Assembly: GCF_050920415.1 (NCBI RefSeq)
Contig: NZ_CP169309.1
Source: Escherichia coli
Lineage (GTDB): Bacteria > Pseudomonadota > Gammaproteobacteria > Enterobacterales > Enterobacteriaceae
Length of the DNA stretch: 64,000 bases
Direction: 5' to 3' (one strand)
The notes beneath the pieces were generated by a model. The model saw only the letters and a list, made by a program, of their open reading frames with translations, searched no databases and had not been told where the DNA came from. Made by a program: the position numbers and the translations under genes. Numbering within the stretch: position 1 is the first letter of the stretch; each line of letters starts with the position of its first letter. This document shows, one piece after another, positions 7,559 through 42,243 of this stretch.

Positions 7559-7726
7559 ATTGTTCAAAAAACGAAAGAACGGAGGTACGTATGTACGCAC
7601 TGAAAAAGATTACGGTAACTGAAGATGGTCGTCAGTAGACTGGCCCCCTGAATCTCCAGACAACCAGTATCACTTAAATAAGTGATAGTCTTAATACTAG
7701 TTTTTAGACTAGTCATTGGAGAACAG

Positions 7727-8092
7727 ATGATTGATGTCTTAGGGCCGGAGAAACGCAGACGGCGTACCACACAGGAAAAGATCGCAATTGTTCAGCAGAG
7801 CTTTGAACCGGGGATGACGGTCTCCCTCGTTGCCCGGCAACATGGTGTAGCAGCCAGCCAGTTATTTCTCTGGCGTAAGCAATACCAGGAAGGAAGTCTT
7901 ACTGCTGTCGCCGCCGGAGAACAGGTTGTTCCTGCCTCTGAACTTGCTGCCGCCATGAAGCAGATTAAAGAACTCCAGCGCCTGCTCGGCAAGAAAACGA
8001 TGGAAAATGAACTCCTCAAAGAAGCCGTTGAATATGGACGGGCAAAAAAGTGGATAGCGCACGCGCCCTTATTGCCCGGGGATGGGGAGTAA
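7727..8092 (+). CDS. insC: IS2 transposase OrfA (InsC)
   Basis: Translation [41 protein letters not shown]... matches IS2 InsC. Confidence 0.9.
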
Positions 8093-8955
8093 GCTTAGTC
8101 AGCCGTTGTCTCCGGGTGTCGCGTGCGCAGTTGCACGTCATTCTCAGACGAACCGATGACTGGATGGATGGCCGCCGCAGTCGTCACACTGATGATACGG
8201 ATGTGCTTCTCCGTATACACCATGTTATCGGAGAGCTGCCCACGTATGGTTATCGTCGGGTATGGGCGCTGCTTCGCAGACAGGCAGAACTTGATGGTAT
8301 GCCTGCAATCAATGCCAAACGTGTTTACCGGATCATGCGCCAGAATGCGCTGTTGCTTGAGCGAAAACCTGCTGTACCGCCATCGAAACGGGCACATACA
8401 GGCAGAGTGGCCGTGAAAGAAAGCAATCAGCGATGGTGCTCTGACGGGTTCGAGTTCTGCTGTGATAACGGAGAGAGACTGCGTGTCACGTTCGCGCTGG
8501 ACTGCTGTGATCGTGAGGCACTGCACTGGGCGGTGACTACTGGCGGCTTCAACAGTGAAACAGTACAGGACGTCATGCTGGGAGCGGTGGAACGCCGCTT
8601 CGGCAACGATCTTCCGTCGTCTCCAGTGGAGTGGCTGACGGATAATGGTTCATGCTACCGGGCTAATGAAACACGCCAGTTCGCCCGGATGTTGGGACTT
8701 GAACCGAAGAACACGGCGGTGCGGAGTCCGGAGAGTAACGGAATAGCAGAGAGCTTCGTGAAAACGATAAAGCGTGACTACATCAGTATCATGCCCAAAC
8801 CAGACGGGTTAACGGCAGCAAAGAACCTTGCAGAGGCGTTCGAGCATTATAACGAATGGCATCCGCATAGTGCGCTGGGTTATCGCTCGCCACGGGAATA
8901 TCTGCGGCAGCGGGCTTGTAATGGGTTAAGTGATAACAGATGTCTGGAAATATAG
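8050..8955 (+). CDS. insD: IS2 transposase OrfB (InsD), DDE integrase-type
   Basis: 301-aa translation matches IS2 InsD; overlaps insC in the -1 frame as in IS2. Confidence 0.9.
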
Positions 8956-9236
8956 GGGCAAATCCAGTCAGGTTGAGGAAGTGCATGTCCTGGGGGGATA
9001 TGTATCGTATGGAGTTTTACCCGCGTAATACCCATCTGGCAGCAAAAATTGAGTATTGCCGGAACGGGAATATTTCATGTTTGCAGGTAGAGAAAACGGA
9101 TGAGGCTTATATCACTACGCTGAACGGCGATACGATGTCAGCGCCAATGATATAAGACAGTAATTCACCATTTGGATTGTCCGCTCCACCCAACATGTTG
9201 TTTCCTTAAGGTTCCTACACCACAAAGGGAACACTC

Positions 9237-11202
<1,966 letters not shown>

Positions 11203-28370: not shown

Positions 28371-31300
28371 ATGGGTAAAGGCAGCAGTAAGGGGCATACC
28401 CCGCGCGAAGCGAAGGACAACCTGAAGTCCACGCAGCTGCTGAGTGTGATCGATGCCATCAGCGAAGGGCCGGTTGAAGGTCCGGTGGATGGATTAAAAA
28501 GCGTGCTGCTGAACAGTACACCTGTGCTGGACAGTGAGGGGAATACCAATATCTCCGGCGTCACGGTGGTGTTCCGGCCGGTGAGCAGGAGCAGACACCG
28601 CCGGAGGGGTTTGAATCCTCCGGCTCCGAGACGGTGCTGGGTACGGAAGTGAAATACGACACGCCGATCACCCGCACCATTACGTCTGCAAACATCGACC
28701 GTCTGCGCTTTACCTTCGGTGTACAGGCACTGGTGGAAACCACCTCAAAGGGTGACAGGAATCCGTCGGAAGTCCGCCTGCTGGTTCAGATACAACGTAA
28801 CGGTGGCTGGGTGACGGAAAAGGACATCACCATTAAGGGTAAAACCACTTCACAGTATCTGGCCTCGGTGGTGGTGGATAACCTGCCGCCGCGCCCGTTC
28901 AGTATCCGGATGCGCAGGATGACGCCGGACAGCACCACAGACCAGCTGCAGAACAAAACGCTCTGGTCGTCATACACTGAAATCATCGATGTGAAACAGT
29001 GCTACCCGAACACGGCACTGGTTGGCGTACAGGTGGACTCGGAACAGTTCGGCAGTCAGCAGGTGAGCCGTAATTATCATCTGCGCGGGCGCATTCTGCA
29101 GGTGCCGTCGAACTATAACCCGCAGACGCGGCAATACAGCGGTATCTGGGACGGAACGTTTAAACCGGCATACAGCAACAACATGGCCTGGTGTCTGTGG
29201 GATATGCTGACCCATCCGCGCTACGGCATGGGGAAACGTCTTGGTGCGGCGGATGTGGATAAATGGGCGCTGTATGTCATCGGCCAGTACTGCGACCAGT
29301 CAGTGCCGGACGGCTTTGGTGGCACGGAGCCGCGCATCACCTGTAATGCGTACCTGACCACACAGCGCAAGGCGTGGGATGTGCTCAGTGATTTCTGCTC
29401 GGCGATGCGCTGTATGCCGGTATGGAACGGGCAGACGCTGACGTTCGTGCAGGACCGACCGTCGGATAAGGTGTGGACCTATAACCGCAGTAATGTGGTG
29501 ATGCCGGATGATGGCGCGCCGTTCCGCTACAGCTTCAGCGCCCTGAAGGACCGCCATAATGCCGTTGAGGTGAACTGGATTGACCCGGACAACGGCTGGG
29601 AGACGGCGACAGAGCTTGTTGAAGATACGCAGGCCATTGCCCGTTACGGTCGTAATGTCACGAAGATGGATGCCTTTGGCTGTACCAGCCGGGGGCAGGC
29701 ACACCGCGCCGGGCTGTGGCTGATTAAAACGGAACTGCTGGAGACGCAGACCGTGGATTTCAGCGTGGGTGCTGAAGGGCTTCGCCATGTACCGGGCGAT
29801 GTCATTGAAATCTGCGATGATGACTATGCCGGTATCAGCACCGGTGGTCGCGTGCTGGCGGTGAACAGCCAGACCCGGACGCTGACGCTCGACCGTGAAA
29901 TCACGCTGCCATCCTCCGGTACCACGCTGATAAGCCTGGTTGACGGAAGTGGCAATCCGGTCAGCGTGGAGGTTCAGTCCGTCACCGACGGCGTGAAGGT
30001 AAAAGTGAGCCGTGTTCCTGACGGTGTTGCTGAATACAGCGTATGGGGGCTGAAGCTGCCGACGCTGCGCCAGCGACTGTTCCGCTGCGTGAGTATCCGT
30101 GAGAACGACGACGGCACGTATGCCATCACCGCCGTGCAGCATGTGCCGGAAAAAGAGGCCATCGTGGATAACGGGGCGCACTTTGACGGCGAACAGAGTG
30201 GCACGGTGAATGGTGTCACGCCGCCAGCGGTGCAGCACCTGACCGCAGAAGTCACTGCAGACAGCGGGGAATATCAGGTGCTGGCGCGCTGGGACACGCC
30301 GAAGGTGGTGAAGGGCGTGAGCTTCCTGCTTCGCCTGACCGTGGCAGCGGATGACGGCAGTGAGCGGCTGGTCAGCACGGCCCGGACGACGGAAACAACA
30401 TACCGCTTCAGGCAGCTGGCGCTGGGGCGGTACACGCTGACAGTCCGGGCGGTAAATGCGTGGGGGCAGCAGGGCGATCCGGCATCGGTATCGTTCCGGA
30501 TTGCCGCACCGGCAGCGCCGTCGCGGATTGAGCTGACGCCGGGCTATTTTCAGATAACCGCCACGCCGCATCTTGCGGTTTATGACCCGACGGTACAGTT
30601 TGAGTTCTGGTTCTCGGAAAAGCGGATTACCGATATCAGGCAGGTTGAAACCACAGCCCGCTATCTTGGTACGGCGCTGTACTGGATAGCCGCCAGTATC
30701 AATATCAAACCGGGCCATGATTATTACTTTTATATCCGCAGTGTGAACACCGTTGGCAAATCGGCATTCGTGGAGGCTGTTGGTCAGCCGAGTGATGATG
30801 CTTCCGGCTATCTGGATTTTTTCAAAGGAGTGATAGGGAAAACACACCTGGCTCAGGAGCTGTGGACGCAGATTGATAACGGTCAGCTTGCGCCTGACCT
30901 GGCTGAAATCAGGACGTCCATTACGGATGTCAGCAATGAAATCACACAGACCGTCAATAAGAAACTGGAAGACCAGAGTGCAGCGATCCAGCAGATACAG
31001 AAGGTTCAGGTTGATACAAATAATAACCTGAACAGCATGTGGGCTGTGAAGCTGCAGCAGATGCAGGACGGACGCCTTTATATCGCGGGTATCGGTGCCG
31101 GTATTGAGAACACCCCTGACGGCATGCAGAGTCAGGTGCTGCTGGCGGCGGACAGGATTGCGATGGTTAATCCTGCGAATGGCAACACAAAACCGATGTT
31201 TGTTGGTCAGGGCGATCAGATATTCATGAACGACGTGTTCCTGAAGCGCCTGACGGCCCCCACCATTACCAGCGGCGGCAATCCCCCGGCCTTTTCCCTG

Positions 31301-31849
31301 ACACCAGACGGAAAGCTGACCGCTAAAAATGCGGATATCAGTGGCAGTGTGAATGCGAACGCCGGGACGCTCAATAATGTCACGATTAATGAGAACTGTC
31401 AGATTCTGGGGAAACTGTCAGCTAATCAGATTGAAGGCGATATTGTTAAAACGGTGGGTAAGGCTTTCCCCCGTGACTCCCGGGCACCGGAGCGGTGGCC
31501 GTCAGGGACCATTACCGTCAGGGTTTATGACGATCAGCCTTTTGACCGGCAAATTGTCATTCCGGCGGTGGCATTCAGCGGTGCCAGACATGAGAGAGAG
31601 CATAATGACATTTATTCATCATGCCGTCTGATAGTGCGGAAAAACGGTGCTGAAATTTATAACCGTACCGCGCTGGATAATACGCTGATTTATACCGGTG
31701 TGATTGATATGCCAGCGGGTCGCGGTCACATGACGCTGGAGTTTTCGGTATCAGCGTGGCTGGTGAATGACTGGTATCCCACGGCAAGCATCAGCGATTT
31801 GCTGGTTGTGGTGATGAAGAAATCCACAGCCGGTATCAGTATCAGCTGA
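28371..31849 (+). pseudogene. J: Central tail fibre / host-specificity protein J, disrupted by a 1-nt frameshift near 28578; C-terminal receptor-binding region appears divergent from lambda J
   Basis: N-terminal 93-aa ORF (28371..28652) matches the J N-terminus; the rest (28634..31849) continues in another frame. Confidence 0.8.
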
Positions 31850-31907
31850 ATGTTCAGAAACCAGACCGGGTGCCAGAAATGGCACCTTTTTTATTTGTGG
31901 AACGAAT

Positions 31908-34492
31908 ATGGCAGTAAAGATTTCAGGCGTGCTGAAAGACGGTGCAGGTAAACCGGTACAGAACTGCACCATTCAGCTGAAAGCAAAACGTAACAGTACC
32001 ACGGTGGTGGTGAACACGGTGGCCTCAGAAAATCCGGATGAAGCCGGGCGTTACAGTATGGACGTTGAGTACGGCCAGTACGGTGTCATCCTGCTGGTTG
32101 AAGGTTTTCCGCCGTCACATGCCGGCACCATCACCGTGTATGAAGATTCTGAGCCGGGGACGCTGAATGATTTTCTCGGTGCCATGACGGAGGATGATGC
32201 CCGTCCGGAGGCACTGCGCCGTTTTGAACTGATGGTGGAAGAGGTGGCGCGTAACGCGTCCGCAGTGGCACAGAACACGGCAGCCGCGAAAAAATCCGCC
32301 GGCGATGCCGGAACATCTGCCCGTGAGGCGGCAACCCATGCGACTGATGCTGCAGGCTCAGCACGCGCCGCCAGCACGTCCGCCGGACAGGCTGCGACGT
32401 CAGCACAGGAAGCATCTTCCGGCGCAGAAACAGCCTCAGCAAAGGCCGCTGAGGCATCAAAAAGTGCTGCCGCTGCAGAGTCCTCAAAAAGCGCGGCGGC
32501 CACCAGTGCCGGTGCCGCGAAAACGTCAGAAACGAATGCGGCAGCGTCACAACAATCAGCCGCCACGTCTGCATCCACCGCGACCACGAAAGCGTCAGAA
32601 GCTGCCACGTCAGCCAGGGATGCGGCGGCCTCAAAAGAGGCGGCAAAATCATCAGAAACGAGCGCAGCCTCGAGCGCCGGTAGTGCAGCTTCCTCGGCAA
32701 CGGCGGCAGGAAATTCCGCGAAGGCGGCAAAGACGTCTGAGACGACGCCAGGTCTTCTGAAACGGCAGCGGAACAGAGTGCCTCCGCAGCAGCAGGCTCA
32801 GAAACTGCCGCTGCATCATCGTCCCGTGAGGCGTCAGTTAAAGCGGAGGAGGCATCAGCCAGTGCCACCGCCGCCGGAAAATCGGCAGAAAGTGCCGCAT
32901 CGTCCGCTTCAGCAGCCACAACGAAGGCTGGCGAAGCCACTGAACAGGCCACTGCAGCAGTGAGGTCTGCTTCCGCTGCGAGGACATCCGAGACGAACGC
33001 GAAAGCGTCGGAAACCCGTGCAGAATCTTCAGAAACGGCTGCCGTATCGTCCGCCAGTTCGGCGGCGTCATCAGCATCATCGGCGTCAGCTTCAAAAGAT
33101 GAGGCGGCAAGGCTGGCGTCAGAGGCGCAGGGCAGTGCCACGACGGCATCCGCGAAGGCGACAGAGGCAGCTGGCAGTGCGACAGCGGCAGCACAGAGCA
33201 AAAGCACGGCAGAATCCGCGGCAACGCGCGCCGAGACTGCGGCAAAACGGGCGGAGGATATTGCGTCTGCCGTGGCGCTTGAGGATGCGAGCACGACGAA
33301 AAAGGGGATAGTCCAGCTCAGCAGTGCAACCAACAGCACTTCCGAGTCACTGGCGGCAACACCAAAGGCCGTAAAAGCCGCCTGTGAGAATGCTGAGAAA
33401 CGACTGCAGAAAGATAAGAACGGTGCGGATGTCCCCGACAAAGACACCTTTACGAAAAATATTGGTGCCTGCCGTGCCTTCGGTGGGGCCGTAAGCACAA
33501 CGACAGGAGACTGGACGACCGCACAGTTTATCGGGTGGCTGGATTCTCAGGGCGCATTTAACCACCCATACTGGATGTGCAAGGGCTCCTGGTCTTACGG
33601 TAATAATAAAATCATCACGGATACGGGCTGCGGAAATATTCATCTCGCCGGCGCTGTCATTGAGGTGATGGGGATAAAGTCAGCGATGACGATCCGCATA
33701 ACCACACCGACAACATCCAGCGGAAGTGGAACGGCGAATGCGCAGTTTACCTATATTAATCATGGTGATGGTTATTCCCCTGGCTGGCGTCGTGACTACA
33801 ACACGAAAAACAAGCCACCGGCCTTTGCGCTGGGAAAAACCGGGGAAACGCTCGCCGATACAGATGCCGTCGCCTGGAACCTGGACAGTGGCGCTTATTG
33901 TGCACAGGATGGTGGCGCATCATCCTTAATTCTTCATTTTAATACAGGGGAAGGCAGCTGCCCCGCGGTCCAGTTTCGGGTGAATTACCGGAATGGCGGG
34001 ATATTTTACCGCTCCGCCCGTGATGGCTATGGCTTTGAGGCGGACTGGGAGCGTCTGTTCACGACAACGGGCGGGACCCTGGAAGGTGCTGTGGGTATCG
34101 GTGCACAGAATACGCTGGGCGGCCATTCACTTGCGCTGGGGAGGGGCGACACAGGCCTGAAACAAAACGGCGACGGTAATCTTGATGTTTACGCCGGTAA
34201 CGCACGTGTAATGCGCTTTACAAACGGCAGCATTCAGGTCAGTAAAGGGCTGAATGTGTCCGGGCGCGTTAATCCTTCCGATTACAGTAATTTTGATATC
34301 CGCTATGTCAGGGATATCCGGCTGGGTACGCGTGTTGTTCAGGGCATGCAAAAAGGCGTGACGTATGAGAAATCCGGCCATGTCATTACGGGGCTTTGTC
34401 TTGTCGGGGATGCTGATGGCGATAACTCAGCGGTTTACCGGCCGGTGCAAAAATACATAAACGGCACATGGTTTAACGTATCGCAGGTATAA
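31908..34492 (+). pseudogene. stf: Side tail fibre protein Stf, disrupted by a 1-nt frameshift near 32747 within the Ala/Ser/Thr-rich repeat region
   Basis: N-terminus MAVKISGVLKDGAGKPVQNCTIQLKA... and the conserved GIVQLSSATNSTSESLAATPKAVKAA motif lie in different frames; genuine repeat sequence continues in the other frame across 32741. Confidence 0.75.
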
Positions 34493-34495
34493 GTA

Positions 34496-35026
34496 ATGCA
34501 GCACTTAAAAAATATTACAGCAGGTAATCCCAAAACCGTTGCTCAGTATCAACTGACAAAAAATTTTGATGTTATCTGGTTGTTTTCAGAGGACGGAAGA
34601 AACTGGTATGAAGAAGTGAGTAACTTTCAGAAAGACACAATAAAGATGGCTTACGATGAAAACAATATTATCGTTGCCATCACCCGGGATGCCTCAACGC
34701 TTAATCCGGCGGGATTAAGTGTTGTTGAGGTGGCAGATATAACGGCGAACCGCCGTGCAGACGATTCGGGGCAGTGGATGTATCTGGACGGTCAGGTGAG
34801 GAAACGCGAGTATTCGTCAGAGGAAGTCAACAGACAGACAGAGCAACGCAAGGCCACGCTGCTCAGTGAAGCAGATACCATCATCCGGCTTCTGGAGCGG
34901 TCGGTAAGGCTGAGTATGGCCACGGAAGAAGAGCGAACCCGGCTGTCGGCCTGGGAGCGTTACAGCGTCCTGCTCAGCCGGGTGGATTCAGCGAACCCGG
35001 AATGGCCACAAAAGCCAGAGCAGTAA
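34496..35026 (+). CDS. tfa: Tail fibre assembly protein Tfa
   Basis: 176-aa ORF immediately downstream of stf; sequence typical of lambdoid Tfa. Confidence 0.8.
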
Positions 35027-35290
35027 ATACCGGAGAAGAGGATTTTACGTTAATCAGTAATTACAGGCAGAGATGATAAAAGCCGCGGAACATTGTATGC
35101 AGGAATGTGCTGCGGCATACCGGATAACTGCGTATGTTGTGGAGTTTTATTTGGGGCATATATGGGACAGAAACAGGCCTCAGATAGGCAGTGATATTGA
35201 GATCAGGATATTTTTGAAAAGATGCAACCATTTGAAAAAACATAGAAAACCCCAAGAAAACCACAGGATGAAAAAAAACACCTATGAATC

Positions 35291-36574
35291 ATGGATTTCC
35301 AGTTATATTCGCTCGGCGCAGCGTTAGTGTTTCATGAAATATTTTTTCCTGAATCATCAACGGCAATGGCGTTAATTCTGGCAATGGGAACCTACGGTGC
35401 AGGTTATGTGGCGCGTATTGTCGGAGCATTTATTTTCGGCAAAATGGGCGACAGAATCGGGCGTAAAAAAGTGCTCTTTATTACCATCACTATGATGGGG
35501 ATCTGTACCACCTTAATTGGTGTGCTGCCGACCTATGCACAAATTGGTGTGTTTGCGCCAATTTTGCTGGTGACGCTGCGTATTATTCAGGGGCTGGGGG
35601 CAGGCGCGGAAATTTCCGGTGCCGGTACGATGCTGGCGGAATATGCGCCAAAAGGTAAGCGCGGAATTATCTCCTCATTTGTTGCTATGGGGACTAACTG
35701 CGGAACCTTGAGCGCAACGGCAATCTGGGCCTTTATGTTCTTCATTCTCAGTAAAGAGGAACTGTTGGCGTGGGGATGGCGTATACCGTTCCTGGCGAGC
35801 GTTGTCGTGATGGTCTTTGCTATCTGGTTGCGTATGAATCTGAAAGAAAGCCCGGTCTTTGAGAAGGTTAACGACAGCAACCAACCGACAGCAAAACCTG
35901 CACCTGCTGGTAGCATGTTCCAGAGCAAATCCTTCTGGCTGGCAACAGGGCTGCGTTTTGGTCAGGCTGGTAACTCAGGTTTAATTCAGACTTTCCTTGC
36001 AGGCTATTTAGTGCAGACGTTATTGTTTAACAAAGCAATTCCAACAGATGCATTGATGATCAGTTCGATTCTCGGCTTTATGACCATTCCGTTCCTTGGT
36101 TGGTTATCCGATAAAATTGGTCGCCGGATCCCGTATATTATTATGAATACCTCTGCGATTGTGCTGGCGTGGCCAATGCTTTCTATCATCGTAGATAAAA
36201 GCTATGCCCCGAGCACCATTATGGTTGCACTGATTGTGATTCATAACTGTGCGGTGCTGGGATTATTTGCTCTGGAAAACATTACCATGGCAGAAATGTT
36301 CGGCTGTAAAAATCGCTTTACCCGGATGGCCATTTCTAAAGAAATTGGTGGTCTTATCGCTTCCGGTTTTGGTCCTATCCTGGCGGGTATTTTCTGCACC
36401 ATGACGGAATCCTGGTATCCGATCGCCATTATGATCATGGCATATTCAGTGATTGGTTTAATCTCTGCGCTGAAAATGCCAGAAGTGAAAGACCGTGATT
36501 TAAGTGCACTGGAAGATGCCGCGGAAGATCAACCGCGTGTTGTAACAGCTGCGCAACCTTCAAGAAGTCTGTAA
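35291..36574 (+). pseudogene. ydfJ: MFS transporter YdfJ, 5'-truncated by the prophage insertion (prophage right junction about 35285-35290)
   Basis: 427-aa ORF lacking the first TM region of the family; in-frame stop immediately upstream of the ATG; same arrangement as Qin-interrupted ydfJ in K-12. Confidence 0.8.
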
Positions 36575-36663
36575 ATCCTCCATCCCTTCTCTTACCGGAG
36601 AGGGGATTTTTTATTCATATAACAAAACATGCAGCTTGCCATATTTAAATTTAAGGAATTGTT

Positions 36664-38124
36664 ATGGGAAATAATTTGTTATCAGCAAAAGCGACGCTCC
36701 CTGTTTATGATCGTAATAACCTGGCCCCAAGAATTGTTCATTTAGGCTTTGGTGCATTTCACCGTGCGCATCAGGGCGTGTATGCCGATATTCTTGCTTC
36801 GGAACATTACAGTGACTGGGGATATTATGAGGTCAACTTAATCGGCGGCGAACAGCAAATTGCCGATTTACAACAGCAAGATAATCTTTATACCGTTGCG
36901 GAAATGTCGGCCGATGCGTGGACGGCTCGCGTCGTTGGCGTCGTTAAAAAAGCCTTGCACATACAAATAGATGGCTTAGAAACCGTGCTGGCTGCGATGT
37001 GTGAACCGCAAATCGCGATTGTCTCTCTGACAATCACCGAAAAAGGGTATTTCCACTCTCCGGCGACCGGACAGTTAATGCTCGATCACCCGATGGTCGT
37101 TGCCGACGTGCAAAATCCCCACCAGCCGAAAACTGCAACAGGGGTGATTGTTGAGGCGCTGGCTCGCCGTAAAGCGGCAGGACTTCCCGCATTTACCGTA
37201 ATGTCATGTGACAACATGCCAGAAAACGGTCATGTTATGCGTGACGTTGTCACTTCCTACGCGCAAGCTGTTGATGTAAAACTGGCACAATGGATCGAAG
37301 AAAACGTGACTTTCCCATCAACAATGGTGGACCGTATTGTGCCCGCAGTGACAGAGGATACGCTGGCGAAAATCGAACAACTTACCGGTGTGCGCGATCC
37401 TGCTGGCGTTGCCTGTGAACCTTTCCGCCAGTGGGTAATAGAAGATAACTTTGTTGCCGGACGTCCGGAATGGGAAAAAGCGGGAGCCGAACTGGTTAGT
37501 GATGTGCTGCCTTATGAAGAGATGAAGTTGCGCATGCTCAACGGCAGTCATTCATTCCTGGCGTATCTGGGATATCTTGCGGGATATCAGCACATTAATG
37601 ACTGCATGGAAGATGAAAATTATCGCCGTGCGGCACATGCCTTGATGTTGCAGGAACAGGCGCCGACGCTGAAAGTGCAGGGCGTGGATCTGCAAAATTA
37701 TGCGGATCGACTAATTGAACGCTACAGTAATCCAGCGTTACGCCATCGAACCTGGCAGATTGCGATGGATGGCAGCCAGAAATTGCCACAGCGGATGTTG
37801 GATTCTGTTCGCTGGCATCTGGCGCATGACAGCAAGTTCGATCTGCTGGCGCTGGGCGTCGCGGGTTGGATGCGTTATGTCGGTGGTGTTGATGAACAGG
37901 GAAATCAGATAGAAATCAGTGACCCACTGTTACCTGTTATTCAGAAGGCAGTACAAAGTAGTGCTGAAGGGACAGCGCGCGTCCAGTCATTGCTGGCAAT
38001 TAAGGCGATCTTTGGTGATGATTTACCAGGCAATAGTTTGTTTACGACAAAAGTAACGGAAGTGTACTTGTCTTTATTAGCGCATGGCGCGAAAGCGACC
38101 GTGGCGAAATATTCCGTGAAGTAA
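36664..38124 (+). CDS. ydfI: Mannitol dehydrogenase-family oxidoreductase YdfI
   Basis: 486 aa; recognised E. coli YdfI. Confidence 0.9.
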
Positions 38125-38127
38125 AAA

Positions 38128-38158
38128 AAGCAATGCCGCCATCGGCGGCATTCACACG
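38128..38158 (-). terminator. Rho-independent terminator for ydfZ (hairpin aatgccgcc-atc-ggcggcatt, T-run on minus strand)
   Basis: 9-bp perfect stem between convergent ydfI and ydfZ; A-run on the + strand corresponds to a U-run for the minus-strand transcript. Confidence 0.6.
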
Positions 38159-38159
38159 C

Positions 38160-38363
38160 TTAGTTCATGCCGAGACGAATCAGGTCCAGTGGTGCCAGTT
38201 TCTCTTCACAACCTTCAACAACTACGGTTTTTCCGCGGCGGATTTGCTCAGCGGTCAGACCTTCAGTATCAATCGACAGGATCTTGCCAGTGTGACCGGT
38301 GCCGCTAACCATAACACGGCTGCCAGTGGTGATTGCGTTACGGTTACGATCGTAGGTCGTCAT
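38160..38363 (-). CDS. ydfZ: Small protein YdfZ
   Basis: 67-aa translation [32 protein letters not shown]... recognised as YdfZ. Confidence 0.9.
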
Positions 38364-38539
38364 AGGTGTTTTCTCCTTTCTGATTTACAGTCGAAGCCCA
38401 CGTAACGGGCGCAATATAAATACTCCTGTCGAGTGAAATATTTTTTGTTTTTGATCAAGCTCACATCTTTTTTGATGCATGCATGAGCCATATGACGGAG
38501 GGAAAAACTCTCACCCCGGATGGGATGAGAGGAATTGAA

Positions 38540-39226
38540 TTACTCTTCGCTAAACCAGTCGCTGTTTTCCTGGCGGATCTGGCGCACGGATTCGCTGATT
38601 TCCTGCAAATGTTGCGTCATTGCACGTTCTACCGCATCGCCATCACGTTTTTGCAGGGCAGAGAAAATCTCAAGATGCTGGCGTAACAGCATTTCTGGTG
38701 GAGAAACGTGGTCGAAACTCATATAGCGCACGCGATCAACGGTCGCTTTCAGGTTCTCAATGGTATCCCACGCCAGTTGACAGTCGGCAATCTGCGTCAG
38801 GAGTTGATGGAAGTTGTCATCAAGTTCAAAAAAATCATCCAGTTGCTTGCGCTCAATGGCAATGCGTTGCTGGTGAAGATTTTGTTCCAGTTGGTAGCAC
38901 TGGCTTTCGGTAATCATGCTCGCCGCCCGACGCGCCACCGCGCACTCAATGGCCTGACGGATAAAACTGCCGTTGTGCACCTGGGCCATGGAAATTTTGT
39001 TGACGTAGCTGCCACGCTGCGGACGAATTTGAATCAGGCCGTTTTCCGCCAGTTTAATAAAGGCTTCACGAACCGGCTGGCGTGACACATTGAAACGAAC
39101 AGAAACTTCTTTTTCCGACAACGGTGTGCCTGGTGCAATCAGGCAATGGACAATGTCGCGGCGAAGAATACGATAAATCTGCTGATTGACAGGCTGTGTG
39201 GGATTAAGTTGCGTTTCGACGGTCAT
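38540..39226 (-). CDS. ydfH: GntR-family transcriptional regulator YdfH (RspR)
   Basis: 228 aa; N-terminal GntR HTH plus FCD domain; recognised E. coli YdfH. Confidence 0.9.
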
Positions 39227-39314
39227 TCGTTCTTGCTTGTGAGTGAGTTAACTGCATGAGTCTACCACTTTTTTGTGACAAGCAATAACCCGGCAGTTAC
39301 GCCGGGTATAAAAA

Positions 39315-40061
39315 TTACTGACGGTGGACATTCAGTCCGGCATAGCTTTGGGTAACCGGCATCATTTCCAGGGTATTGATATTGACGTGAGCAGGCAGCG
39401 TTGACACCCACCAGACGGCTTCGCTGACATCTTCTGGCGTCAATGCAACTGTGTTTTGATAGGTTTTTTCGGCTTTACCGTCATCACCTTTAAAGCGGAC
39501 ATTAGAAAACTCGGTGCCACCCACCAGTCCCGGTTCGATGTCTGTGACACGTACTGCCGTACCGTGCAGATCTGTGCGTAGATTAAGGCTGAACTGACGA
39601 ACAAACGCTTTCGTCGCACCATAAACGTTACCACCAGCATACGGCCAGCTGCCTGCCGTGGAGCCAATGTTAATGATATGACCATGATTACGTTCAACCA
39701 TACCCGGTAAGACGGCCCGCGTCATATATACCAGGCCTTTGTTGTTGGTATCAATCATCGTTTCCCAGTCTTCAACGCTGGCTTTATGCGCAGGCTCCAT
39801 GCCCAGCGCCAGACCGGCATTGTTTACCAGGATATCAATATTGCACCACTCGGCAGGAAGCGATGCCAGCATCTCTTCAATAGCGGCGCGATTACGAACG
39901 TCCAGTTGGGCGATATACAGATTATCACCCAGTTCGTCTTTTAACTCCTGCAACCGCTCCTGGCGACGGCCAGTGGCGATAACTTTATGCCCTTGTTGAA
40001 TAAAACGACGAGTAATGCATTCACCAAAACCTGCCGTTGCTCCAGTTACTAAAACGATCAT
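39315..40061 (-). CDS. ydfG: NADP-dependent 3-hydroxy acid dehydrogenase YdfG (SDR family)
   Basis: MIVLVTGATAGFGECITRRF... with Rossmann TGxxxGxG motif; start set at the MIVLV methionine. Confidence 0.9.
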   Translation of the reverse strand: MIVLVTGATAGFGECITRRFIQQGHKVIATGRRQERLQELKDELGDNLYIAQLDVRNRAAIEEMLASLPAEWCNIDILVNNAGLALGMEPAHKASVEDWETMIDTNNKGLVYMTRAVLPGMVERNHGHIINIGSTAGSWPYAGGNVYGATKAFVRQFSLNLRTDLHGTAVRVTDIEPGLVGGTEFSNVRFKGDDGKAEKTYQNTVALTPEDVSEAVWWVSTLPAHVNINTLEMMPVTQSYAGLNVHRQ

Positions 40062-40197
40062 CTCACTGTTCCTCAACGCTTTTGTGTGTCAATAACATAG
40101 CACGTGATGCTTAAGAGCGGGTAATACTGGTTTGCAAGATTGCACTCCGTTATCAGTAAGCCTACGCTATGGAACACCTCGCGTTCAGGAGAAGAAA

Positions 40198-42243
40198 ATG
40201 ACAACAATGAATCCTTTCCTTGTGCAAAGCACACTGCCGTATCTGGCTCCCCATTTTGATCAAATTGCCAATCATCACTATCGACCGGCATTTGATGAGG
40301 GAATGCAGCAAAAGCGGGCCGAAATTGCCGCCATTGCGCTCAACCCGCAAACACCTGATTTCAACAATACTATTCTGGCACTGGAGCAGAGTGGGGAACT
40401 GCTGACCCGCGTCACCAGCGTTTTTTTTGCGATGACTGCGGCGCATACCAATGATGAATTACAGCGTCTTGATGAGCAGTTTTCCGCTGAACTGGCAGAA
40501 CTGGCTAATGATATCTATCTGAACGGTGAATTATTCGCGCGAGTAGATGCTGTCTGGCAGCGCCGTGAATCCGAGGGGCTTGATAGTGAATCCATTCGCC
40601 TGGTGGAGGTTATTCATCAACGTTTTGTCCTTGCCGGAGCCAAACTTGCGCGAGCTGATAAAGCAAAATTAAAAGTTCTTAATACAGAAGCTGCGACCCT
40701 GACCAGCCAGTTTAACCAGCGGTTACTTGCGGCAAATAAATCCGGCGGTCTGGTTCTGGACGATATTGCGCAACTGGCTGGGATGAGCGAACAGGAGATT
40801 GCGCTGGCGGCAGAGGCGGCTCGCGAGAAAGGTCTGGATAACAAATGGCTTATTCCGCTGCTGAATACCACCCAGCAACCGGCGCTTGCTGAACTGCGCG
40901 ATCGCGCGACGCGTGAAAAACTGTTTACTGCGGGCTGGACGCGAGCGGAAAAAAATGATGCCAATGATACCCGCGCTATCATTCAACGTCTGGTGGAGAT
41001 CCGTGCACAACAGGCTACATTACTTGGTTTTCCTCATTATGCCGCATGGAAAATCGCCGATCAGATGGCAAAAACACCTGAAGCAGCACTTAACTTTATG
41101 CGGGAAATTGTTCCAGCGGCGCGTCAACGTGCGAGCGATGAATTAGCCTCCATACAGGCGGTTATCGATAAGCAGCAGGGCGGGTTTAGCGTGCAGCCGT
41201 GGGACTGGGCATTTTATGCCGAACAGGTACGGCGGGAGAAATTTGATCTTGATGAGGCGCAGCTCAAGCCATATTTTGAATTAAACACGGTGTTGAATGA
41301 AGGTGTATTCTGGACCGCGAATCAGCTCTTCGGTATTAAGTTTGTCGAACGTTTTGATATTCCTGTCTACCATCCTGACGTTCGTGTGTGGGAAATTTTT
41401 GATCATAATGGCGTGGGGCTGGCGTTATTTTACGGTGATTTCTTCGCCCGTGATTCAAAAAGCGGCGGTGCATGGATGGGCAATTTTGTTGAGCAATCAA
41501 CGCTGAATGAAACGCATCCGGTAATTTATAACGTCTGCAATTATCAGAAACCCGCTGCCGGTGAACCTGCGTTGTTACCCTGGGATGATGTGATAACCTT
41601 ATTCCATGAATTTGGTCATACGCTGCACGGCCTTTTTGCCCGCCAGCGTTATGCCACGCTTTCCGGTACCAACACGCCGCGTGATTTTGTCGAATTTCCA
41701 TCGCAAATCAACGAACACTGGGCAACGTATCCGCAGGTATTCGCTCGCTACGCCCGGCATTATCAGAGCGGGGCAGCAATGCCTGACGAACTGCAACAGA
41801 AAATGCGTAAAGCCAGCCTGTTCAACAAAGGGTATGAGATGAGCGAACTGCTTAGCGCCGCACTTCTCGATATGCGCTGGCATTGCCTGGAAGAAAACGA
41901 AGCAATACAGGATGTCGATGATTTCGAATTGCGGGCGCTGGTGGCGGAAAATATGGATCTTCCTGCTATACCGCCACGCTATCGCAGCAGTTATTTCGCC
42001 CATATTTTTGGTGGCGGATATGCCGCAGGTTATTACGCTTATCTGTGGACACAAATGTTGGCCGATGATGGTTACCAGTGGTTTGTTGAGCAGGGCGGAT
42101 TAACGCGTGAAAATGGGCTGCGTTTTCGCGAGGCGATCCTTTCCAGAGGTAACAGCGAAGATCTGGAACGCCTGTATCGACAATGGCGCGGTAAGGCTCC
42201 TCAGATTATGCCGATGCTGCAACATCGTGGCTTGAACATATAA
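40198..42243 (+). CDS. dcp: Dipeptidyl carboxypeptidase II (M3 zinc metallopeptidase)
   Basis: 681 aa from ATG 40198 (MTTMNPFLVQSTLPYLAPHFDQI...); HEFGH zinc-binding motif present. Confidence 0.95.
   Translation: MTTMNPFLVQSTLPYLAPHFDQIANHHYRPAFDEGMQQKRAEIAAIALNPQTPDFNNTILALEQSGELLTRVTSVFFAMTAAHTNDELQRLDEQFSAELAELANDIYLNGELFARVDAVWQRRESEGLDSESIRLVEVIHQRFVLAGAKLARADKAKLKVLNTEAATLTSQFNQRLLAANKSGGLVLDDIAQLAGMSEQEIALAAEAAREKGLDNKWLIPLLNTTQQPALAELRDRATREKLFTAGWTRAEKNDANDTRAIIQRLVEIRAQQATLLGFPHYAAWKIADQMAKTPEAALNFMREIVPAARQRASDELASIQAVIDKQQGGFSVQPWDWAFYAEQVRREKFDLDEAQLKPYFELNTVLNEGVFWTANQLFGIKFVERFDIPVYHPDVRVWEIFDHNGVGLALFYGDFFARDSKSGGAWMGNFVEQSTLNETHPVIYNVCNYQKPAAGEPALLPWDDVITLFHEFGHTLHGLFARQRYATLSGTNTPRDFVEFPSQINEHWATYPQVFARYARHYQSGAAMPDELQQKMRKASLFNKGYEMSELLSAALLDMRWHCLEENEAIQDVDDFELRALVAENMDLPAIPPRYRSSYFAHIFGGGYAAGYYAYLWTQMLADDGYQWFVEQGGLTRENGLRFREAILSRGNSEDLERLYRQWRGKAPQIMPMLQHRGLNI

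Follow-up and report, generated by a model that had tools for sequence, protein, structure and literature searches.

A probable attR of a lambda-like prophage within ydfJ of Escherichia coli

Introduction

In a 64,000-nucleotide stretch of Escherichia coli DNA (contig NZ_CP169309.1, hereafter the window), a lambda-like late region stretches from about 13.1 kb (terminase) to J (28634–31849); downstream of it come a tail fibre assembly gene and then an open reading frame for part of the transporter YdfJ. The locus raises the question of where phage DNA ends and chromosomal DNA begins, and of what the DNA between the two genes and the shortened ydfJ represent. A sequence-only reading had placed an attR at about 35285–35290, with a 5′-truncated ydfJ directly behind it. 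We show below that the feature is already known and that this observation is right, with three small corrections.

Earlier work on the site gives a framework for comparison. According to a 2019 review (PMC6379469), integration of Qin at the 5′ end cost ydfJ its promoter and 28 N-terminal codons. For ydfJ prophages, an att of 18–19 bp was defined by attP PCR (2021, PMC8112680, S7 Fig legend), and the ydfJ locus is occupied in many strains, K-12 included (PMC8112680). Both the core length and the number of missing codons found here agree with PMC8112680 and PMC6379469.

The ydfJ reading frame at the prophage edge

The last prophage gene, tfa (34496–35026, plus strand), encodes a 176-aa tail fibre assembly protein (Pfam Caudo_TAP, 1.9e-29), the counterpart of which in a near-identical genome is annotated as tail fiber assembly protein. 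After a gap of 264 bp (35027–35290), it is followed on the same strand by a 427-aa ORF at 35291–36574, which corresponds to codons 29–455 of a gene for an MHS-family MFS transporter and is referred to here as ydfJ′; the genes ydfI, ydfZ, rspR, ydfG and dcp come next. A codon listing of the junction gave TGA (35285–35287), ATC and ATG (35291), so that an in-frame TGA on the plus strand, coming from the phage arm, shuts the ydfJ frame one codon ahead of Met29. The stop that the sequence-only reading had seen immediately before the ATG is therefore present, but it is not adjacent, as the ATC codon lies between.

For comparison, the uninterrupted locus was taken from GON1437 and from SYNB1934, a Nissle derivative, in both of which the gene order is rspA–rspB–ydfJ–ydfI. 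Intact ydfJ in GON1437 is 1368 bp long and encodes 455 aa; as the remnant encodes 427 aa, 28 codons are missing. Upon alignment to both loci, chromosomal identity was seen to begin at window position 35291, with similarity from 35285. Residues 1–28 of YdfJ (MTIEKHERSTKDLVKAAVSGWLGTALEF) are missing from the remnant, the product of which matches residues 29–455 of the intact protein except at 2 of its 427 positions. A search of the window for the 5′ end of ydfJ found none, and no intact N-terminus, of the kind that would contradict the sequence-only reading, lies upstream in frame in the window. A full-length 12-TM YdfJ with native start and promoter is thus not found here, residues 1–28 being gone and the 5′ end lying outside the window. 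PGAP likewise labels ydfJ′ in a near-identical genome as "incomplete; missing N-terminus".

The 427-aa product still carries the signature of the MFS fold in Pfam (MFS_1, 2.3e-37; Sugar_tr, 6e-25). Alignment to MFS_1 starts at residue 21 (profile position 2) of the intact protein and at profile position 33 of the remnant, and profile positions 2–32 are lost. Mean hydropathy over 19 residues was positive for segments centred at about 17–78, with no clear dip at the 28/29 cut and with TM1 not resolved. Judged by hydropathy and Pfam coordinates only, the cut is predicted to fall inside the first transmembrane helix, TM1 being destroyed rather than cleanly removed. The earlier claim that the first transmembrane segment is missing accordingly holds for the incomplete N-terminus, but the cut runs inside the first hydrophobic segment and not after it. 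We conclude that ydfJ′ is a promoter-less gene remnant, not a short MFS gene, and infer that it is most likely a silent pseudogene. As a separate observation, ydfJ of SYNB1934 (L001, 2924–4287) has its full-length extent at a prophage-free locus and is annotated as frameshifted; inactivation of ydfJ is thus possible without any prophage.

The attachment core and the left prophage end

Among complete genomes, that of strain MFDS1022581 (NZ_CP169399.1) is the closest; it differs from window 28901–41700 by one mismatch and one gap (99.98% identical) and is 99.5% identical to window 1–25000 apart from one IS. The head region is about 0.7% divergent, and the window has an extra 1331-bp IS. As the attL and the integrase lie outside the window, both were read from this near-identical genome, and we infer that the window's own strain has an attL like that of its closest relative.

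The order in NZ_CP169399.1 is rspB, the 5′ end of ydfJ, CATGGATTTC, and then int and xis. Its attL (…GCGCTTGAATT CATGGATTTC AAGAGTCATGAATAG…) carries the missing 28 codons (84 bp), then CATGGATTTC, and is adjoined by the cognate tyrosine integrase (426 aa, with Phage_integrase and Arm-DNA-bind_2 domains in Pfam) and the excisionase. The attR in the window reads …CACCTATGAAT CATGGATTTC CAGTTATATTC, and attB reads …GCGCTTGAATT TATGGATTTC CAGTTATATTC, with TATGGATTTC or CATGGATTTC as the attB alleles at the shared block. When attL and attR were set against attB, a shared core was found and no bases were lost. The core-to-core distance in NZ_CP169399.1 is 48,118 bp, which puts the left end of the prophage about 14 kb ahead of position 1 of the window.

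At window 35290–35299, attR has the block CATGGATTTC, which attL shares without a difference, and alignment of attR, attL, attB and attP extended this to an 18-bp core, TGAATCATGGATTTCCAG, at 35285–35302, somewhere within which strand exchange took place. The boundary proposed earlier is thus correct to within the att core, and the right prophage boundary can be fixed at 35285–35302, with ydfJ at this locus annotated as a remnant. A second copy of the core was searched for in the window, and the core occurs there only once; the matching attL repeat expected at the other prophage end was found between rspB and the integrase in NZ_CP169399.1.

The core of attR is one base shorter than those of attL and attB (TGAAT-CATGG vs TGAATTCATGG; window 35285–35299 vs L003, 10575–10590), and the attP of free phages has the shorter form, as attR does. 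The left edge of similarity is thereby shifted by 1 nt between phage and chromosome, and because of this one-base difference in core length, the exact crossover points are not fixable from sequence.

The P arm and attP in free phages

For a search of phage genomes, window 35027–35299 was joined to the int-side arm of attL and used as a single query. PhiR42_1, mEp460_ev081, HannyBb and Tritos span query positions 109–603 in one piece at about 89% identity; these positions start at window 35135, take in the core and reach into int, so that P, O and P′ are contiguous in these phages. By local BLAST, homology to free-phage attP begins exactly at 35135, and the same holds for the Qin attR of REL606. 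On the strength of this homology, window 35135–35284 is assigned to phage DNA, as the P arm of the attachment site (attR = P-O-B′), and the P-core-P′ of the free phages is taken as the true attP. The earlier identification of the prophage/chromosome junction as an attR is borne out by the complementary attL in the closest genome together with the contiguous attP in free phages.

Sequence elements within the P arm were then compared with those in the int-side arm. A pair of arm-type-like repeats, 11 bp apart, lies at 35150–35169 on the plus strand (TTTGGGGCA at 35150–35158 and TATGGGACA at 35161–35169), and the int-side arm of NZ_CP169399.1, like that of mEp460, contains two more copies, +58 and +69 from the core. 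The motif TGGGGCATATATGGGACA is invariant in all of the four att sequences compared, the outer flanks of which are unrelated. In a mismatch scan of the attP region for the resulting four T[T/A]TGGG[G/A]CA-like copies, 0 of 500 shuffles reached the observed count. A stricter pattern, TKGGGRCA, was not enriched window-wide and was replaced by the mismatch scan with shuffles. The repeats are candidate sites for the N-terminal domain of the integrase. An IHF-consensus-like site, TTTCAAATGGTTG, with one mismatch to WATCAANNNNTTR, was picked up at 35225–35237 on the minus strand by pattern scan only, and a perfect copy of the consensus, TATCAAATGGTTA, is present in the P′ arm of attL. Arm repeats and IHF-like sites of this kind are the components expected of a lambda-type attP, at which integrase and IHF would be predicted to bind.

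The DNA between tfa and ydfJ′

Between tfa and ydfJ′ lie 264 bp of non-coding DNA, made up of a 90-bp trailer of the tail module, a mosaic joint of about 18 bp and the P arm of about 150 bp. The trailer (35027–35116, plus strand) is not part of att and ends in a conserved hairpin without a U-tract. The same tfa with about 90 bp after it was found in prophages at tRNA-Ser/hyaA and at uspF, with divergence right after the hairpin; these prophages are also without b-region genes. The hairpin (35082–35116) was seen in the predicted fold and is conserved among prophages that occupy three different att sites, one stem position being G.U, A-U or G-C across three sequences. The fold of 35027–35140 (114 nt) as a whole is no more stable than shuffles (z = −0.92). 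The exact joint of tfa to the P arm is present in 12 of 5426 genomes. A direct repeat, ATACCGGA(G/T)AA, with copies at 35027 and 35117 flanking the trailer, was considered and set aside as a likely chance match or microhomology.

Several searches for a gene in this gap gave negative results. Its two ORFs of more than 60 aa (84 aa on the plus strand and 67 aa on the minus strand) had no match in Pfam, in keeping with the earlier statement that neither an invertase nor another b-region gene lies between tfa and ydfJ. A serine recombinase (a Pin/Gin ORF of about 190 aa) between tfa and att was not found, the space being 264 bp only; pin is present at that position in Qin and mEp460. An Rfam scan of the gap returned nothing, its sole sub-threshold match (E = 0.17) being inside tfa. 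Neither a promoter-like site in the gap nor a canonical intrinsic terminator from tfa to ydfJ′ was detected in a promoter and terminator scan, and nothing is annotated at the gap position by PGAP (MFDS1022581, REL606 and O157) or in the mEp460 record. The 264 bp can accordingly be assigned to the tail-module trailer and the attP arm, and not to a missing gene.

Comparison with known ydfJ prophages and lambda

Qin (Kim) of K-12 and B (REL606) is inserted in ydfJ at the same point and has left the same remnant of 427 aa. Its P arm is 91–93% identical from window 35135 on, and its core differs by one base, T vs C. Upstream of 35135 there is no homology, the tfa/tail fibre module of Qin being unrelated, and in Qin the genes pinQ, ydfK and ynfT separate tfa from the P arm, whereas the window prophage carries none of these. 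Qin is also a decayed remnant, in contrast to the window prophage of about 48 kb with its full head and tail set.

Among free phages, the attP of mEp460 and its relatives (PhiR42_1, HannyBb and Tritos) matches the P arm and core, with 85% identity over 35135–35302. The Int of mEp460 is 98% identical to that of NZ_CP169399.1 and goes with the same arm-type repeats, but one position of the core is T in mEp460 and C in the window (TGAATTATGG vs TGAATCATGG), and in mEp460 tfa is separated from attP by a serine recombinase gene (pin) and a ydfK-like gene, which the window prophage is without. The PPydfJ prophages of STEC (O157:H7 and O26:H11 strain 11368) use the same attB in ydfJ, and the attR of O157:H7 has the arm of the window from about 35151. 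These STEC prophages often form tandem clusters, and they have effector (DUF1076) and DinI-like genes beside the P arm, whereas the prophage described here is without effector genes.

Similarity to lambda is seen in the layout, J-stf-tfa-attR … attL-int-xis. The two also appear alike, as far as can be judged by sequence, in an arm-binding N-terminus of the integrase, in arm motifs that flank a short core on either side and in IHF-like sites. The core, the arm motifs and the target are all different. Lambda integrates between gal and bio, where no gene is disrupted; unlike lambda, the window phage breaks a coding sequence without restoring it. What is particular to the prophage in the window is local only, namely the lack of a pin-ydfK-ynfT block, a re-assorted tail module and the one-base difference in core length between attL and attR.

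Occupancy of ydfJ in E. coli

Occupancy of the site was surveyed with a 250-bp probe across attB in 5426 complete E. coli genomes. The ydfJ attB was uninterrupted in 2009 of these and split in most of the others; where the site is split, 19 bp of attB, TGAATTTATGGATTTCCAG, are present in both the left and the right half. ydfJ is thus one of the busiest hotspots of lambdoid integration, at which very different phages share one int/att module, and both its status as a hotspot and the common module are already in the literature in outline. The phage-type C variant of the core was found in seven uninterrupted genomes, which fits either natural polymorphism or past excision; given these genomes, the presence of C in both attL and attR needs no special explanation.

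In some genomes, homology to ydfJ was lost further inside the gene, at about 35627 in window coordinates for DS26-1 (H30) and at about 3099 of L005 for OkiPb01713 (H100). One of these inner breakpoints adjoins a gene annotated "phage tail protein", which suggests that there are insertion or rearrangement breakpoints in ydfJ other than the Qin-type att.

Proposed integration event and alternative explanations

Taken together, 35135–35302 is very probably the attR (P arm, core and B′) of a lambda-like prophage of about 48 kb inserted in ydfJ. A tyrosine integrase of the Qin/mEp460 type would insert the prophage at about codons 27–32 of ydfJ, with strands exchanged within the short core common to phage and chromosome, TGAAT[T/C]ATGGATTTC[A/C]AG. 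Through integration, codon 29 would come to stand immediately behind the phage P arm and the TGA that this arm brings along, while the promoter of ydfJ and its codons 1–28, the start codon among them, would come to lie at attL, about 48 kb off and beside int and xis; ydfJ′ would in this way be left promoter-less and with its first transmembrane helix cut. Excision may depend on the paired arm-type repeats of the P arm and on its IHF-like site.

Were ydfJ instead truncated by a deletion or rearrangement at the prophage edge, there would be no true attR, and it fits this reading that the window holds one junction only and is without the 5′ end of ydfJ. It is nevertheless extremely improbable, as the closest genome retains the missing 84 bp and the same core at the opposite end of its prophage, and attL and attR together account for attB with nothing lost. 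The same breakpoint, moreover, recurs in thousands of genomes, and attP is contiguous in free phages. We likewise consider it highly improbable that the gap encodes a small protein (the 84-aa plus-strand or the 67-aa minus-strand ORF) or a small RNA, or that it is a remnant of the b region. Two ORFs of more than 60 aa do span it, and the hairpin at 35082–35116 is conserved, but matches in Pfam and, inside the gap, in Rfam are lacking, as are a promoter-like site and any annotation. Both ORFs cross the mosaic joint at 35117–35135, and the 84-aa ORF crosses the att core as well, which makes this ORF impossible in the free phage.

A third alternative accepts the attR and holds that ydfJ′ is alive, transcribed by read-through from the late operon or from an unrecognised promoter of the P arm, with Met29 as the start of a shortened transporter. 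The 427-codon ORF is intact and only two residues off the intact allele, and between tfa and ydfJ′ there is a hairpin without a U-tract and no canonical intrinsic terminator. An open ORF is expected anyway, however, from recent or recurrent integration, and no Shine-Dalgarno-like sequence lies within 15 nt of the ATG at 35291, the upstream sequence being AACACCTATGAATC. TM1, with its conserved E-F-x-D-F stretch, is cut, and the K-12 equivalent is treated as truncated with its promoter lost (PMC6379469). A live ydfJ′ is therefore unlikely compared with the silent remnant preferred here. A narrower version, conceivable as there is neither a canonical terminator nor a promoter between tfa and ydfJ′, is that phage late transcription drives the open ydfJ′-ydfI pair on induction, a lysogenic conversion by read-through in which the U-less hairpin (35082–35116) would be an RNA-stabilising end rather than a terminator. 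We regard this as very unlikely; if it were true, induction would turn on a shortened transporter together with an enzyme of the mannitol dehydrogenase family.

Other features of the prophage

The side tail fibre gene of the window prophage consists of two overlapping ORFs in different frames (31908–32963 and 32960–34492). In the relative, the counterpart is labelled by PGAP as a pseudogene "missing C-terminus", and the split state was also observed in related prophages at the tRNA-Ser and uspF sites. The split may therefore be programmed, or a conserved trait, and not a sign of decay.

Full colinearity of the window with NZ_CP169399.1 was considered and proved wrong, the offset being due to the 1331-bp IS in the window. 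Relative to NZ_CP169399.1, this insertion occupies window 7636–8966, and its flanks overlap by 5 bp, which resembles a target duplication. With its ORFs of 136 and 301 aa and going by the size of that element, it is presumably IS2. It sits in the lysis region of the prophage, just upstream of an IS21-family element (about 9237–11202) that is also present in NZ_CP169399.1. In the early prophage region of this relative (L003, 21494–22844, outside the window), a gene of the zeta-toxin family and a truncated Hok/Gef gene were observed.
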